The notes below the pieces were generated by a model. The model worked only from the letters and a program-made list of their open reading frames with translations. It was not told the DNA's origin and searched no databases. DNA of 62,788 bases, counting the filler, from Stramenopiles sp. TOSAG23-2 (lineage: Eukaryota), in NCBI GenBank assembly GCA_900128395.1. It is 9 parts of 9 records of this genome, joined end to end, with 100 filler letters (N's around TTAATTAATTAA, not from the genome) between each part and the next. Parts side by side here need not be neighbours in the genome. Positions count along the whole stretch, not along the records: positions 53,628 to 61,160 come from LT650305.1; 8 more parts are not named here. One strand, 5' to 3'. Made by a program: the position numbers and the translations under genes. Below are positions 51,823 through 60,476 of this stretch, piece by piece (the first letter of the stretch is position 1; each line of letters begins with the position of its first letter).

Positions 51823-53388
51823 ATGTCTTGTTGTAAAAATATAAATTTAGATGAAGCATTTGCATACGAAACTACAGCACAAATTAAGATAAAAGATAAA
51901 CGTCTTGGAATTACAAGAATGGCGTTATTGTTCTTTGCATTTATTTATGTTATTGTTTATAACATCATCATAAGTAAAGGTTGGGCAAAAGAACTGCCCG
52001 TTCGTGGTGTATCAAAAATTGTAGGTAAGAACCCAACAATAAGTGGCATAGATGGTGAAAAAAATTGTTATTGTTATGGCGGATCACATAGTACTTTATG
52101 CGGGAACCATACTTGTCATGATTCATATAGCGATTTCACGGACTTGCCATATTGTACAGATTCAACATCACCATATATAATTGATAAATTGGAAATGAAA
52201 CAGAAACGGTGTATTCGAATTGACTCAATGGATGTAATATTTGATAATGGCTATTCAACATTTCTGTCAACAGAGATCCGCTATATGTATCAAAGCTATA
52301 ACAATGCAGTTATTGATAATCCAACGGAAGCAATTGTTAAAAAATTAGGTAAAATGTGGAAAGAAACTACACATCCATTTATACCAAATTTTTTTAACAT
52401 AAACTTTTATGTTTCTGATATAGAAAAATATACCATTTTACTTGAACATGCTATCGTTCGCCCTGATGATAATAAACATGCTAAAACGTCATCTTTGCAA
52501 ATTGATACAGGTGTTTTAAAATCAAAAAACAACGCATATTGTAGGAAACTATATGGAAACGAACAAGGGGAAAATGTTAAGAACATTTATAAATTCCCTG
52601 AAACAACAGATAAAGGCACTTTTTATTGCGATATCCATCCAAAAAAAACATATGATTGCAAATCATGCAAAACGAAAACATGTGAGGTAGATGAATGTGG
52701 ATATGATTTATACGAGGTGGAAGAGTTACTATTAGCAGGTATAGTTGAACCAGATGGTATGGCACCGGTGATAAACCCGTTAGATAAGGGAATTCTTAAA
52801 AATTCCAAGTATCCATTACGAGGCAATGGTTTCATCATGGAAGTGTTTATTACATATACTGATGAAGTCCACTATAATTCCATATCGACAGGACGTTTGA
52901 CTTACTCTTATTCTGTTGATTTACTTACAGGTCCACCAAATGCCCAGAGCGGGACACAGCAGACATGGCAAGGGACAAGATACGTCATGGAAAAACATGG
53001 TATAAGTATAAAAACTATTGTTGATGGATCATTGCATGTCTTTGACCCCCAAACTTTACTTGTACAAATGACTTCTGTACTAGGTTTAACATCTATTATA
53101 GCATTGACAATTGAAATGATTATGTTAAAATATTTGAATGTAAGTGGATATTATAAATCGATGAAATTTTCAGAATCTATTGATTACAATCGTTTAAAAA
53201 CTATTTCTGCCCTTAAAGATAAAAATTTGCAAAATTTATCACAGAAAGAAATTGAGACACTAGTAGATCAAGATAAAAGGAGTACTGTATGGGAAGATCA
53301 AACTCAAATTGAAATGATGCATCATGATTTAAGTGAAAAGGAAAAAATAAAAAATAAAAATAGTTGGAAGAATTTAAGTGGTAAATGA
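51823..53388 (+). CDS. P2X receptor-like two-TM ion channel
   Basis: N-terminal F.YET...IKDKRLG, TM1, Cys-rich ectodomain, IEKYTILLEH, KHGISI, TM2 (SVLGL...IE), C-terminal YxxxK (YKSMK). Confidence 0.82.
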   Translation: MSCCKNINLDEAFAYETTAQIKIKDKRLGITRMALLFFAFIYVIVYNIIISKGWAKELPVRGVSKIVGKNPTISGIDGEKNCYCYGGSHSTLCGNHTCHDSYSDFTDLPYCTDSTSPYIIDKLEMKQKRCIRIDSMDVIFDNGYSTFLSTEIRYMYQSYNNAVIDNPTEAIVKKLGKMWKETTHPFIPNFFNINFYVSDIEKYTILLEHAIVRPDDNKHAKTSSLQIDTGVLKSKNNAYCRKLYGNEQGENVKNIYKFPETTDKGTFYCDIHPKKTYDCKSCKTKTCEVDECGYDLYEVEELLLAGIVEPDGMAPVINPLDKGILKNSKYPLRGNGFIMEVFITYTDEVHYNSISTGRLTYSYSVDLLTGPPNAQSGTQQTWQGTRYVMEKHGISIKTIVDGSLHVFDPQTLLVQMTSVLGLTSIIALTIEMIMLKYLNVSGYYKSMKFSESIDYNRLKTISALKDKNLQNLSQKEIETLVDQDKRSTVWEDQTQIEMMHHDLSEKEKIKNKNSWKNLSGK

Positions 53389-54186: not shown

Positions 54187-55746
54187 ATGGAGAGAGGAAA
54201 TAATCTAAATCTTCCATCCTTTACAACACGACGATTAATAGGATGGCTATCTGTAGCATTATTTTTTTTAGTAGATTTATTTGCAAGATTGTCAGTTGAT
54301 GTTATTGAAGAAAATTTAATGGAAGATTTTCAAATTGATGCTACTATCGCTTCATCCGTTTTTGGCTCTTCAGTTTTTTTCTCGTATGCTGTGATGCAAA
54401 TACCACACGGATGGCTTTTAGATAATCTTGGTGCAAAGAAAACAATTTCAATATCTTGTTTTGTTACTTTCGTAGGTTGTATTTTATTTTCATTTTCACA
54501 TCATATTTGGCTTGCATTGATTGGAAGAATTTTAACTGGTGCAGGTGCTGGTAGTGCTTGGCTTGGTATTGTAAAGGTAACAACATTAAATTTCAAGCAT
54601 GTAAATGGATTACCTGAAACTTTTATTGGTATAGCAAATGCTATTGGTTTAGTTGGTGGTTTACTAGCGCAAACACCTTTTAAATTAGTTTGCAATATTT
54701 ACGGGTGGAGAAAATCATATTATATTTTTTCAATTATACCTTTACTGTTAACATTTTTGATCTATTGTTTTGTAGATGACATTTCGTATGAGGAAGAACA
54801 AAAAAAAAATAAATTAATATTATTATTAGATGAATCGAATGATATTGATTCTGGTCTTAAGAAATTACGAACAACGCAAGAAAATATAGATCGCCATATT
54901 AATAATAACTACTACATATTATCAAATGATGAATCGACGACTCCTAGTAATACTATTACTACTACTAATAATAATAATTATGGCGATAATAATAATAATG
55001 ATGATGATAATCATAATAATAACAATAATATTAAACTTTCATTTTGTAAATTATTATGTGAAAGAAATATATATATATTTGGAATTTATTTAGCTGGATG
55101 CGATGCACCATTTGAAACGATAGCTGGACTATGGGGTGCAACGTATATGAATAATATACAAGGGTTTTCAAGTTTTCAAAGTGGTATTGCAATTTCATTT
55201 TTAGTGATCATTTCCGGAGGCACCGGTTTAGCATATGGTAAATTATTAAAAGGTGATACGAAAATGAAGGAAAAAATTCAATTATGCATTTTTGCTGCTG
55301 TTGCATCATTTATTGGATGTTTAATTTTAAATTCGTGTATAAAATTACCTGTATACGTTGTATATATTGCATTATTTTTAATTGGGCAAGCATGTGGAGG
55401 AATGACTGGATTATGGTGTATTGTTCCACAAAGCAAGTTAACTCTTCATGGTAATCTTGGACTAGTTAGTGGAATTGTCAATACAATATGTATTACATTC
55501 GATTCACTTGCTCAACTTATCTTTGGTGTGTTATTAGATTATTATTGGAGTGGAAAATATATAAAAGATAATGGTTCTGTTACAAAACATTCCAAGCATA
55601 GCCATAGTAGTAGTAGTAGTAGTAGTACTGATGATAAAACAAGGTATTATGACCAACATTCATTTATTCCTGCAATGTCATTTTTAAGTTTTTTCTTTTT
55701 ATTAGGTGGTATTTGTTTTTATTTTTATAAAAAAGAGAAGAGGTAG
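54187..55746 (+). CDS. Major facilitator superfamily transporter
   Basis: About 12 TM; YAVMQIP.G.LLDNLGAKK (motif A), GRILTGAG, YGWR; Asn-rich central loop. Confidence 0.9.
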   Translation: MERGNNLNLPSFTTRRLIGWLSVALFFLVDLFARLSVDVIEENLMEDFQIDATIASSVFGSSVFFSYAVMQIPHGWLLDNLGAKKTISISCFVTFVGCILFSFSHHIWLALIGRILTGAGAGSAWLGIVKVTTLNFKHVNGLPETFIGIANAIGLVGGLLAQTPFKLVCNIYGWRKSYYIFSIIPLLLTFLIYCFVDDISYEEEQKKNKLILLLDESNDIDSGLKKLRTTQENIDRHINNNYYILSNDESTTPSNTITTTNNNNYGDNNNNDDDNHNNNNNIKLSFCKLLCERNIYIFGIYLAGCDAPFETIAGLWGATYMNNIQGFSSFQSGIAISFLVIISGGTGLAYGKLLKGDTKMKEKIQLCIFAAVASFIGCLILNSCIKLPVYVVYIALFLIGQACGGMTGLWCIVPQSKLTLHGNLGLVSGIVNTICITFDSLAQLIFGVLLDYYWSGKYIKDNGSVTKHSKHSHSSSSSSSTDDKTRYYDQHSFIPAMSFLSFFFLLGGICFYFYKKEKR

Positions 55747-56140: not shown

Positions 56141-58999
56141 TTACATACCACCACACTTTTCACAATCGTTGATTATATCCCATCTTGCCACCTTTGAAGC
56201 TGGTAATTCACTATTTGCTTTCGCTTGTTGACATGAAATACATTTATCACCAAAATGCCATTTTGGAACGACGGAATTTGTGGAAGGTGTATTGCTATTA
56301 CCACTTGATGATTTGATACGTGCAACTTGTTCCTTTTTATAGCAAGTTGAATAAAATATAGGATCCGATGGATCATCACTAATTGTATATATTGTACCAA
56401 CTTCCGGCTCTTCAGTGGGGCTAAAGAAACCGTAACAGATAAACGAATTTTCGGATGCACCGTTTTGTACCATATTCTGTTTACATTGACCTTTGTTATA
56501 AGGGATATTTACATCATTATTTAAAAATGAAACTACATTTGATGGATTTTTATATGGTACTACATTTAATGCATCACACATTCTCTTTTTATTATTAGCT
56601 ATATCTGGATCATTCGTCATACCATTTTCACACCATGTTTTACAAGCACTAATATCATCGGTTGAACTAATGACGAAACATTTTTTATGTTTTCCTTTTA
56701 CATTCGAGGGAAAATCAATATTTGCTTCTTCATATTGACAATGTTCTGTTTTAATCCAAACAGTTTCATATACTAATTCAGGAGGCGGAGGTGGAGTTCC
56801 GCCACCACCAGTACCACCTGGATCTACTAAGACTGCATCAAAACAATCATAATATCCTCTCCATGAATATTGGATAACATATTCACCAGCCTCAGCGTAT
56901 TCTGGAAATTTTATTTTAATTAAGTCATAATCCTGCGGACGTTTGTATGCGATTTTATATTTTGCTGCTGCTACCAGCCATGGATATTTTGGATTTGAAT
57001 AGGCCACTTTTTCATCTTGTGCAAGGTATTGTGATTTATATTCATATTGACCATATGTAACACCTTCTGTATCGCATGCAGCTTTGTCCTTATGCCTTCT
57101 AGTACATCGCCAAGTACTCGGCCTTTCAAAATATAATGTGCTATCAGATGATGATAATTTCTTGGAATACCTTTCGCCTGTTCCAACACCTGCAGTTGGA
57201 AGCGGCTCTTTTCCAAATTTAGAACTAGACTTTGGAGTATGCCATCGTACATGTGTTTTATCATATCCTTTGCCTACTAACCATGTTTTTGCACTACTTG
57301 GCGCTTCAGTGATATAACCTTCAATTGCTTCAGGTGAATTTAAACCAAGTTTCCCTTCATCCTCTCGTTTAACAATTGAAATGTATACAAATGTATTTGG
57401 ATGTCCAATCGACCACTCAAGATGAAAATCTTGATTTTTATTGACAGCAATATTAATACTTTGTCCTGGTCGTGGAGGGCATGGACCAACTTTTGTTAAA
57501 CCTTTGATTCTAGATTCTGGATTATTAATCCAATTATGCCCAGATGCAAAATTAATAATGAAAAATGTAAAAAATATCATTATCGTTAAAATATTCCTAC
57601 TGCTAATAATACCATGACGACGACTACTAGTATTATTATTATTATTATTACTAATAATATTTTTTCTATTATTATTGTTATTATTCCTGGCGGCATTTCT
57701 CTTATTTACAAAAACGCCAGCCGAATTATTCCCATTTAGAACATATAATAACATTCCTACTACTGATAAAAGGTTTACGGTATTACTATTATTAAGAACA
57801 CTTCCACTCGATGTATGCACAGTTGATTCAGCTATACCATTTTTAGTATTACCATCATCTGGAGTATTACCATCGCCTGAAGTATTACCGTTATCATCGT
57901 CCATATTATTATCATCACCGGGTTTCACTCCACTCACTTCACATGTATCTAAACCTACTTTTCGCAAACATGGGCAAAGGCGTTTTTCATTATTATTATT
58001 ATTTGTATCCGCAATGGCTTCGCATAAATTATTTACGTTTGAATCAACAGGACATTTTTGAAAATCATCTCGTGTGGAACAATACCCTTCTTCATTAGTT
58101 AGTAACCCAAGTTTGCTACACGGTTTGCCATTGTTACTTAGTAATGGTGCTCTGCATGCTAAAAAATTTCCAGGGCCATCAATTTCATTTGAAAATTGTT
58201 CATCTTTCGGTAAAGATAAAGTAAAGTTCAAAGCAGTGCCATCACATGATGTACCTTGTTTTTCACATGCTGTTTTACAAGATATTCCTTTTTCAGAGGC
58301 TTGGATCCATATAGTAGGATTTGGCATATCAGTCGATTCATCCAATACTAAATCTTCCTCTGGCCAAAAAAAAGCACCACCATTTGTCTCTCCGTGTTTT
58401 ACTAATGCTCTAAACCGTATGCTTCCCGTACCTTTTTTCGGTGCTTGAAATTTAAAATCATGTTTGAAATGCTTAACGCCTGCATTCCTATGCATAACAG
58501 CTTTCCCTGAACACATTGGCGGAGTCCAAAATTTTGGATCTTCAGATTTAGGTAAGATCCATTTACCAACTTTTCTTACGTTATCACTCGTAGTACTAGC
58601 AGCATTATTATCAACGGCATATAACAATAATCCTAAATATTTCGCATCTTTACTTAATGCTTTTACGGTGATTGTTATCAATTCACATGGTTCATATTTT
58701 CCATTAGAGGAAGAAGAAGTCACGGCATATTTATTAGATTTAATTGGAGGTGCGACTAAATCCATACCGGCAGGACAACACGGCGAGACAATCCCATTCA
58801 TATCTGTAGTCGTCCACGCTCTAGCAATTCCATCACTTGGACATGGCAGTGTACATAATTTCATAGCATCCAAACAAGCAGGCCCGTCACCTGCTGAATT
58901 TGCATTTATAAATATGTCATCACGATGAATTATAATATTAAACAATATTAAATAATAAAAAAAAGAAATACAAAATATGTTTTGTTTTCTTACTTGCAT
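56141..58999 (-). CDS. Secreted Reeler-domain protein fused through a hydrophobic/basic/internal signal segment to a His-brace LPMO-like domain and a Cys-rich tail
   Basis: Reeler: YEPCELITITV, YLGLLLYA, VGKW, AVMH, FQAPKKGTGSIRFRALV. Then IIFF..FASG|HNWINNPESR...EWSIGH...GEYVIQYSWRGYYDCFD. Confidence 0.7.
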   Translation of the reverse strand: MQVRKQNIFCISFFYYLILFNIIIHRDDIFINANSAGDGPACLDAMKLCTLPCPSDGIARAWTTTDMNGIVSPCCPAGMDLVAPPIKSNKYAVTSSSSNGKYEPCELITITVKALSKDAKYLGLLLYAVDNNAASTTSDNVRKVGKWILPKSEDPKFWTPPMCSGKAVMHRNAGVKHFKHDFKFQAPKKGTGSIRFRALVKHGETNGGAFFWPEEDLVLDESTDMPNPTIWIQASEKGISCKTACEKQGTSCDGTALNFTLSLPKDEQFSNEIDGPGNFLACRAPLLSNNGKPCSKLGLLTNEEGYCSTRDDFQKCPVDSNVNNLCEAIADTNNNNNEKRLCPCLRKVGLDTCEVSGVKPGDDNNMDDDNGNTSGDGNTPDDGNTKNGIAESTVHTSSGSVLNNSNTVNLLSVVGMLLYVLNGNNSAGVFVNKRNAARNNNNNNRKNIISNNNNNNTSSRRHGIISSRNILTIMIFFTFFIINFASGHNWINNPESRIKGLTKVGPCPPRPGQSINIAVNKNQDFHLEWSIGHPNTFVYISIVKREDEGKLGLNSPEAIEGYITEAPSSAKTWLVGKGYDKTHVRWHTPKSSSKFGKEPLPTAGVGTGERYSKKLSSSDSTLYFERPSTWRCTRRHKDKAACDTEGVTYGQYEYKSQYLAQDEKVAYSNPKYPWLVAAAKYKIAYKRPQDYDLIKIKFPEYAEAGEYVIQYSWRGYYDCFDAVLVDPGGTGGGGTPPPPPELVYETVWIKTEHCQYEEANIDFPSNVKGKHKKCFVISSTDDISACKTWCENGMTNDPDIANNKKRMCDALNVVPYKNPSNVVSFLNNDVNIPYNKGQCKQNMVQNGASENSFICYGFFSPTEEPEVGTIYTISDDPSDPIFYSTCYKKEQVARIKSSSGNSNTPSTNSVVPKWHFGDKCISCQQAKANSELPASKVARWDIINDCEKCGGM

Positions 59000-59339: not shown

Positions 59340-60476
59340 ATGAATGAAAAAATCTTATTATTAATAATATCCATAACAGTATTAATATTTTCATGTGATG
59401 TAAATGCACATAATAATAATGCTGGGATATATGGTTTAGCATTAACAGCAAATTCACCAGCTGAAGTTAGTTTAACATTTCTTGATGTAAATACTGGGAA
59501 TACAACTATCATTGGCCAAAAACATAATGGTATGTATTTATATCCTTACTATATATTCAATATATTTCATTCAACTTACTAACATATACATATATATATA
59601 CATACATACATAGTACTTGATGGTATGGGTGACTTAACAACAATTGATTCTGAAAAAAGAATTTTTTATTATTTAGGTGATACAAGTTCTGGTACGACTT
59701 TACTTGGACTTAATATGAAAGATGGTTCTGTTGCATGCCAAGGTGTTGTTCCATTACGAGAAATTGGTTATGTTGGAATTGCACAAAGTATTGATTATGA
59801 TATGGAAAATGACAATTTAGTGATAAGTGGATTAGCGGAAGGAAATACTACGGGGCATTCTGTTTTGAGAACTTCAGGTTGTGTCGAAGGTTCGACTAAT
59901 ATTGGAAAATTGGAACATGTTGGTATCTTTGGTGATGGTACATTTGCTCCAATGTTGCATGCAAGTGCAATTGATTCCAAACAACAACGACTTTTTGTAA
60001 CACTTGCTATTACAAAAGAGCAAGATGCGGTTGGTGTTATTGATTTGAATGGGAAACAACCTATGTTTACAATCCCAGCAGATTCATTTCAACATACTCT
60101 GCTTGGTATGCAATATGATACAAAAACTGAATCGATTGTAGGTGTATTACCAATAAATGAAGCACCTGGTGGCATTGCATTACAATCTTTAAAACTTGAT
60201 GGTACAACACCAACATGGAAATCAATGACTTTACCAACACAAGATTATGATTGGTTATATGGAAATTCTGGTACTGTATCTGCATTAAATATCGAAGATG
60301 GGCAATTATATGTATTAGCTGGAAAACATCCACAACAACCTTCGAAAGGACCACCTAAAATGCCGGAAATGCATCTTGTTTGTATTGATTTATTAAAAGA
60401 AAAAGTTGTGGAGACACCACTTGTTAGTGGTTTGCCATTTGGTGTTGATTCATTATTGGAAATGAATTATGTGTGA
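59340..60476 (+). CDS. Two-exon secreted protein, probable beta-propeller (exons 59340-59529 and 59614-60476)
   Basis: Signal peptide. Intron GTATGT(59530)...TACTAAC(59577)...TAG(59613) joins the two ORFs in frame. Confidence 0.8.
59530..59613 (+). other. 84-nt GT-AG spliceosomal intron with TACTAAC branch point
   Basis: Donor gtatgt, branch tactaac, acceptor atag; the reading frame is restored on splicing. Confidence 0.85.

Follow-up and report, generated by a model that had tools for sequence, protein, structure and literature searches.

Histidine-brace copper enzymes are regarded as necessarily N-terminal, because residue 1 binds the copper through its free amino group. The usual layout of secreted carbohydrate-active enzymes is a catalytic domain, a linker, and a binding module; X325 proteins are single small domains with their own anchor. 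Internal signal-peptidase sites are known mainly from viral polyproteins: the flavivirus and hepacivirus glycoproteins are made by such processing, and hepacivirus E1/E2 carries two short hydrophobic stretches with a short charged loop. According to the respective reports, the copper site of the AA15 lytic polysaccharide monooxygenase (LPMO) TdAA15A consists of His1, His91, and Tyr184 (PMC5823890), X325 has a histidine brace without polysaccharide activity while Bim1 serves copper uptake with Ctr1 (PMC7924993), and LPMOs are annotated across eight families (a 2026 preprint). Here we describe an open reading frame (ORF) of 952 codons from Stramenopiles sp. TOSAG23-2 (assembly GCA_900128395.1), located in a 62,788-nucleotide stretch of DNA (the window; nine parts of this genome joined end to end). 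The family to which it belongs appears, from the sequences compared, to avoid the N-terminal limit by means of an internal signal-peptidase site. The encoded polyprotein is probably cut by signal peptidase into a membrane-held Reeler protein and a copper protein that opens with histidine and belongs to a new LPMO-like family, likely polysaccharide-oxidizing.

Translation recovered, in one stop-free frame and in the same order, all of the landmarks that an earlier sequence-only reading had listed, each within a few bases of the place reported there (Table 1). The first internal hydrophobic segment maps to 57772–57737 (57781–57737 in that reading) and the closing strand, GEYVIQYSWRGYYDCFD, to 56887–56837 (~56885–56835 in that reading); this strand, aa 705–721, reads G-E-Y-V-I-Q-Y-S-W-R-G-Y-Y-D-C-F-D. 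HNWINNPESR occupies aa 488–497, with the His488 codon read directly at 57538–57536, and EWSIGH occupies aa 528–533, with the His533 codon at 57403–57401. A Pro run lies at aa 736–740, and the whole protein contains 35 Cys residues. By our own arithmetic (~33% GC, with ~7% of random codons being stops), the probability that the 66 codons of the loop and second hydrophobic segment would be stop-free at random is ~0.007. Judged by this low value and by the recurrence of the layout in distant relatives, the ORF pattern exceeds chance.

Relatives were collected with a single-sequence, filter-only HMMER search of 1.84 billion representatives, with aa 488–952 as the query. The search returned 523 sequences at E ≤ 1e-3, 268 at E ≤ 1e-10, and 49 at E ≤ 1e-30. 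Among the best 150 of the 523, 73 align from query residue 1 and were all read; the 77 others start later and were left out. His occupies the candidate place in 73/73, followed by Asn in 72 and, as third residue, Trp in 72. The residue at −1 is Ala in 53, Gly in 12, Ser in seven, and Thr in one. His lies at position ≤45 in 23 of these sequences: 21 have a plain N-terminal signal peptide alone upstream, and two seem 5′-truncated. Such stand-alone forms were also found as complete ORFs with upstream stops (L007 and L011). A signal peptide followed by His is the arrangement expected if this residue must become residue 1. The sequence-only reading had taken the second hydrophobic segment to be an internal signal peptide and had asked whether homologs keep His directly after it; the retention of His in every sequence read, the small residue that always precedes it, and the 21 stand-alone forms all support that interpretation.

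In the other 50 sequences (internal forms) the His lies 49–800 residues in, and two short hydrophobic segments, identified by eye, precede it in 47. The loop between the segments ranges from 2 to about 120 residues and usually contains Lys or Arg. Both segments are present in the DOMON-bearing relatives P0007, P0090, and P0141. In P0021, an extra membrane segment and then a WW domain stand at the C-terminus; its His domain therefore faces outward, which fits an out-in-out path via the two segments. Other C-terminal additions are Laminin_G_3 (P0057 and P0061) and, in P0106 and P0147, membrane segments followed by charged tails, and the C-terminal membrane segments indicate that some lineages keep the His domain tethered. 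The full layout, whose conservation the sequence-only reading had proposed as a check, recurs with its parts in the same order in L005, a genomic contig from a second organism with a continuous 889-codon ORF (52% identity), and in the complete ORFs L006 (37%, 889 codons) and L013 (25%, 775 codons); no poly-A was seen at the 3′ ends of the latter two. Prokaryote genomes, searched with two close sequence patterns only, gave no relative, and tblastn against plasmids gave nothing better than E ≥ 2.

An alignment of 41 family members shows H1, N2, W3, R10, P19, H46, and Y75 (domain numbering; H46 is His533) to be invariant, and W226, G228, Y229 (Tyr716), D231, and D234 to be conserved in at least 90%. 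With this alignment, AlphaFold2 modeled the His-started domain as a β-sandwich with a large, partly helical insert (predicted local distance difference test, pLDDT, 92.1; predicted template modeling score, pTM, 0.89), in which Tyr716 opens the last strand. VIA-align was used to compare the model with 48,161 representative chains, and the best 50 rows were considered. LaX325 (PDB 6ibh) ranked first (Z 7.6; root-mean-square deviation, rmsd, 2.9 over 120 residues, from residue 1) and TdAA15A (PDB 5msz) second (Z 7.3, rmsd 2.6 over 117 residues, both ends co-aligned). LPMO or LPMO-like chains (AA9, 10, 11, 13, 15, 16, X325, and fusolin) account for 18 of these 50 rows, 14 of them aligned from chain residue 1, and the last strand is co-aligned, which lends the putative convergence of His488, His533, and Tyr716 some indirect support. 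When the comparison was repeated over Foldseek's top 1000, LPMOs made up 22 of the best 50 rows (Z 5.0–6.1). TdAA15A and the model end together in the alignment (residues 195 and 240), and Tyr184 and Tyr229 (Tyr716) each lie 11 residues from that end. The model points to a likely LPMO-type fold class, an assignment that Z alone does not prove.

For comparison at the sequence level, eight LPMO_10 loci were fetched from four actinobacterial genomes and seven were aligned; as a control, the PF03067 model found all eight at E 1e-36 to 5e-57. The AA10 set begins H-G-x4-P-x-S-R and ends W...(F/Y)-(Y/F)-x-C-x-D-V. The sequence-only reading had given the LPMO start as H-x4-P, which needs correction: the motif is H-x5-P-x-S-R both here and in the AA10 sequences. 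Residues H1, P7, S9, R10, G18, G218, W226, and D234 are invariant across the seven AA10 domains and the window domain, and Tyr716 falls under the Phe/Tyr of the AA10 closing motif in the joint alignment. The single local match from hhalign aligns the strand that leads into His533 with the one preceding the invariant His of AA10 (A-x-H). Language-model neighbors include polysaccharide monooxygenase, LPMO_10, and BIM1-like clusters (0.82–0.87), which we treat as a lead only. The window family resembles the AA10 and AA15 LPMOs (PF03067, TdAA15A) in having His first after a signal peptide (cleavage being predicted here) and the H-x5-P-x-S-R start, a second invariant His after a β-strand, a W...(F/Y)-Y-x-C-x-D-V end whose aromatic residue opens the last strand, a modeled β-sandwich core, and a linker with a C-terminal binding module (putative here). 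It differs in being unseen by PF03067, in the spacing of the second His (after 45 residues, not about 100), in having the large, partly helical insert after the second His rather than before it, in the invariant Asn-Trp at residues 2–3, and in the internal position of the domain within a precursor in two thirds of cases. On these comparisons, the assignment as an LPMO-like domain in a family of its own, separate from AA10, AA15, and X325, holds.

The topology, cleavage, copper binding, and activity that we infer for the two-part precursor, the product of one gene in a marine eukaryote with AT-rich, intron-poor DNA, are as follows. The leader would carry the Reeler domain and Cys-rich module into the lumen of the endoplasmic reticulum, where the first short hydrophobic segment would halt transfer and leave the basic loop in the cytosol. 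The second hydrophobic segment would re-enter the membrane in signal-peptide orientation, and signal peptidase would cut after the small-x-small A-S-G. One product would be a Reeler ectodomain anchored by the hydrophobic hairpin. It might also be trimmed, or anchored through glycosylphosphatidylinositol (GPI) at S-S-G-S, as this motif, a 9-residue polar spacer, and the ensuing 12–14-residue hydrophobic stretch have the look of a GPI signal; the stretch is not C-terminal, being followed by the loop, the second segment, and 465 residues. The other product would be a soluble protein opening with His488, the amino group and side chain of which would, together with His533, hold copper over Tyr716. 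This protein would combine the β-sandwich with a Gly/Pro linker and a putative PAN/apple-like binding tail, its most likely role being oxidative attack on cell-surface or prey polysaccharide. The internal-signal arrangement would be explained by the need of a histidine brace for a free α-amino group on its His.

Viral polyproteins (flavi-, hepaci-, and pestivirus glycoproteins) offer a parallel for the internal stop-transfer and re-initiating signal, and there too signal peptidase cuts after small residues. Unlike these, the present case is a cellular gene family, and the selective reason would be chemical, namely the free α-amino group on His. In pestivirus Erns, as reported, signal peptidase also cuts after a lumen-side membrane-associated helix (PMC3937272), and by analogy cleavage of this type may account for three relatives that have a single hydrophobic segment. 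The upstream half resembles the ectodomains of ferric-chelate reductase 1/SDR2 in its N-terminal Reeler domain and, in some relatives, a DOMON-like insert; the window protein differs from them in lacking both this insert and the cytochrome b561 membrane domain and in being joined to the His-started domain. A tentative and rather doubtful extension, again by analogy, is that, across a widespread group of marine protists, one ORF supplies a new His-brace (LPMO-like) copper protein together with its membrane-held partner, the Reeler or Reeler-DOMON half feeding electrons to it or docking it as a built-in redox pair. Cellobiose dehydrogenase with fungal LPMOs is the comparison here.

Several observations weigh against a cleaved polyprotein with an LPMO-like product. 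The first hydrophobic segment has only 12–14 residues and falls below the hydropathy threshold. Three of the 50 internal forms, the DOMON-bearing P0012, P0014, and P0020, show a single hydrophobic segment, and the hairpin model fails there; a few loops (P0005, L013, and P0129) are without basic residues. In the AlphaFold and Foldseek comparison proposed in the sequence-only reading, the AA15/X325-like match from residue 1 was obtained with VIA-align, and Foldseek found no match for the model in the PDB at E ≤ 1e-3. All VIA-align Z values are below 8, Ig-like adhesins are interleaved with the LPMOs, and an unrelated Thermus protein tops the second pass (Z 6.6). The comparison with AA10 by hhalign gave a probability of only 5.5%, and the short His-to-His spacing noted above also counts here. 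MAFFT sets the second His of AA10 under a non-conserved His of the window domain, a pairing we dismissed as a mid-alignment artifact. The Pfam LPMO models (LPMO_10 PF03067, AA9, and BIM1-like PF20238) match none of the 41 members at E ≤ 1, and NCBIfam gave nothing for 8/8 members. A PDB sequence search with the His-started part returned noise only (DnaJ, E 1.4), and the family profile matched the GnT-V module alone in the PDB. The lack of any Pfam LPMO match among the 41 members is at the same time what the sequence-only reading implied in calling the family possibly new.

The junction between the two halves could also mark two neighboring genes (or one gene and a set of exons downstream of it) that happen to share a frame and have their own transcripts, the second starting at Met474, 14 residues before the His. 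Near-identical sequence is present in 20 marine or seawater runs from 10 studies, 17 of the runs being recorded as RNA, and RNA contigs from four marine runs (X1, X2, X4, and X5) cover both halves of the ORF. None of the contigs from these four runs bridges 57528–57688, part of which is masked as repeat, and the 3′ half is deeper in contigs than the 5′ half in three of the four. Three 3′ contigs from three studies end at 57506–57527, just within the His domain, which is a weak hint of a break between two transcripts; the RNA so defined would be without the signal and the His. An excess of 3′ depth is, however, usual for poly-A libraries, and one contig (run X5, record 25; 57543–57603) covers the second hydrophobic segment, 5′ of the His codon. 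An uninterrupted reading frame crosses the junction not only in the window but also in three same-species contigs (L002–L004, 96–99% identity) and in L005, L006, and L013. The loop indels between strains are multiples of three and keep the frame (L004 lacks 17 codons and P0002 lacks one), and the upstream part is on the same predicted protein in 50 of the 73 relatives. No conserved Met was found in or before the second hydrophobic segment among the relatives, so a second start is unlikely. We regard two genes as very improbable. The sequence-only reading had named separate transcripts as an outcome that would undo it; the continuous frame in the window, in L002–L004, and in three other organisms speaks for one gene, and the part of that comparison calling for an RNA contig across the junction did not yield one.

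A single gene could still encode an uncleaved, two-pass membrane protein with two ectodomains, its His being internal to a β-sandwich binding module. Cleavage at His488 is itself a prediction, the middling fold scores overlap those of adhesins, and the hairpin alone would make a stable membrane protein; against this, in the 21 stand-alone relatives a normal N-terminal signal peptide ends precisely before this His, a small residue stands at −1 in 73/73, and an uncleaved protein gives no reason for an invariant His-Asn-Trp at the membrane edge. We consider this improbable. A less remote alternative, though still an unlikely one, keeps the polyprotein and the brace and makes the released protein a copper handler like X325/Bim1, with the Reeler(-DOMON) ectodomain used for metal reduction. 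LaX325 is the best structural match (Z 7.6), and both it and, putatively, the window protein are extracellular eukaryotic His-brace proteins tied to a membrane-anchoring signal; the X325/Bim1 report provides the precedent of a His brace without polysaccharide activity (PMC7924993). D231, the Asp two residues after Tyr716 on the same strand face, is present in at least 90% of the family and is Ser in the AA10 set, and the DOMON-like insert of P0012 lies closest to ferric chelate reductase 1 like clusters. The end motifs, on the other hand, agree with AA10 and not with X325; the BIM1-like model matches 0/41 members; the window protein is without a C-terminal anchor signal, its anchor-like segments lying upstream; and the long insert and the PAN-like tail set it apart from X325. 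A domain joined through a Gly/Pro linker to a binding module, which is PAN/apple-like here and Laminin_G_3 in P0057 and P0061, is a carbohydrate-active build. For the released copper protein of the cleaved polyprotein, we favor oxidation of polysaccharide over copper handling as the most likely function, given this build and end motifs like those of AA10; copper uptake stays a viable reading in view of the resemblance to X325, the conserved Asp next to Tyr716, and the ferric-reductase-like partner.

A full-text literature search, in which few subscription journals were covered, found no account of this family or of an LPMO-type domain freed by an internal signal, and we know of no cellular LPMO-type case of internal-signal release. 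If the proposed processing is correct, a large group escapes LPMO searches restricted to protein N-termini. A new LPMO-like family, with 523 relatives and with RNA in marine samples, would then be open to testing on marine polysaccharides or in copper uptake, and its constant linkage to a Reeler or Reeler-DOMON ectodomain would give the poorly understood Reeler domain a testable function.

Table 1. Features of the polyprotein ORF (window positions; residue numbers of the full-length translation)
Feature	Residues (aa)	Position	Strand	Basis and remarks
Whole ORF, 952 codons plus stop	1–952	56141..58999	−	Translation; same-species copies L002–L004, 96–99% identity
N-terminal signal peptide	1–33	58901..58999	−	Hydropathy; hydrophobic stretch aa 6–26
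Reeler domain	87–201	58397..58741	−	Pfam PF02014, E 5.3e-10, 40.4 bits vs cut-off 21
Cys-rich module	241–353	57941..58279	−	Resembles GnT-V C-terminal module
First internal hydrophobic segment	410–421	57737..57772	−	Translation; putative stop-transfer half of hairpin
Asn-rich basic loop, eight Lys/Arg	422–469	57593..57736	−	Translation; predicted to be cytosolic
Second hydrophobic segment, ends A-S-G	470–487	57539..57592	−	Hydropathy above 1.6; putative internal signal peptide
His488 codon	488	57536..57538	−	Invariant in three family alignments and in 73/73 sequences read; predicted residue 1 of released protein
His-started β-sandwich domain (LPMO-like)	488–735	56795..57538	−	AlphaFold2 model, structural alignment, AA10 motifs
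His533 codon, candidate second brace His	533	57401..57403	−	Invariant in 41/41
Tyr716 codon, candidate axial Tyr, start of last strand	716	56852..56854	−	Conserved in at least 90% of 41; invariant in 23 full-length relatives
Gly/Pro linker	724–740	56780..56830	−	Translation; low pLDDT at model end
Cys-rich tail (212 residues), PAN/apple-like	741–952	56144..56779	−	AlphaFold2, pLDDT 86.4

In the upstream half, the leader would be cleaved after I-N-A, before the conserved N-S-A-G-x-G-P-A-C; a small-x-small followed by an N-S-(A/S/E)-G start is also found in relatives P0004, P0012, P0014, P0022, and L005. Pfam agrees with the sequence-only reading on the Reeler domain (Table 1), and detected it in nine of the 41 family members scanned. 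Within this domain, His170 of the A-V-M-H motif (58490–58492, minus strand) is invariant or nearly so in the 23 full-length relatives, as are Met79, Tyr102, Lys201, a G-T-G, and an H-G-E-T-N-G-G-A-F stretch. A conserved Met-His pair of the Reeler ectodomain, standing beside a copper protein, could serve as a pair of metal or haem ligands. With the family profile, the Cys-rich module matched the C-terminal module of human GnT-V (PDB 9f5h/5zic/6yjq) at E 7.5e-4 to 1e-3, and Pfam Glyco_transf_18 was matched in 3/41 members; a small disulfide module thus seems to be common to the Golgi enzyme GnT-V and these surface proteins. In P0012, P0014, P0020, P0007, P0090, and P0141, the Cys-rich module is followed by the DOMON-like insert, which is not in the window protein. 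The closest clusters to the insert of P0012 are named “ferric chelate reductase 1 like” (0.91). The Asn-rich loop stretch also interrupts RNA assemblies. At the other end, the Cys-rich tail has no Pfam match and is without a C-terminal hydrophobic segment or anchor signal. Its structural neighbors comprise 29 chains at Z ≥ 2 (best 4.9), nearly all of them PAN/apple/WSC binding modules. Other members have Laminin_G_3 modules instead of or beside this tail (P0057 and P0061).

The window has a GC content of about 31% and is packed densely with long uninterrupted ORFs. Its other genes include an SDHA flavoprotein, a P2X-like receptor, an MFS transporter, and a sortilin/BNR protein, and the DNA is therefore that of a cellular eukaryote. 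A giant-virus origin, considered for this AT-rich, dense, and ORFan-rich window, was rejected on account of these cellular genes (SDHA, P2X, sortilin-like, and others). At 8057–9097 (minus strand) lies an alpha-L-arabinofuranosidase B catalytic domain (Pfam E 6e-127) with 40–56% identity to 65 bacterial loci, mostly of Acidobacteriota and Actinomycetota; such similarity to bacterial loci is a hint that the gene was transferred into the eukaryote. The ORF at 51823–53388 (plus strand), two genes upstream of the polyprotein ORF, matches the P2X receptor C-terminus (E 6e-9). At 59340–59582 (plus strand), an 80-codon ORF whose start resembles a signal peptide is followed, 42 bases on, by a 283-codon ORF with no Pfam match (59625–60476, plus strand), and the two may be exons of one secreted protein, separated by one of the few introns in the window. 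The central loop of the MFS transporter (54187–55746, plus strand) contains a long insertion rich in Asn and Asp; the loop of the polyprotein is similarly of low complexity.

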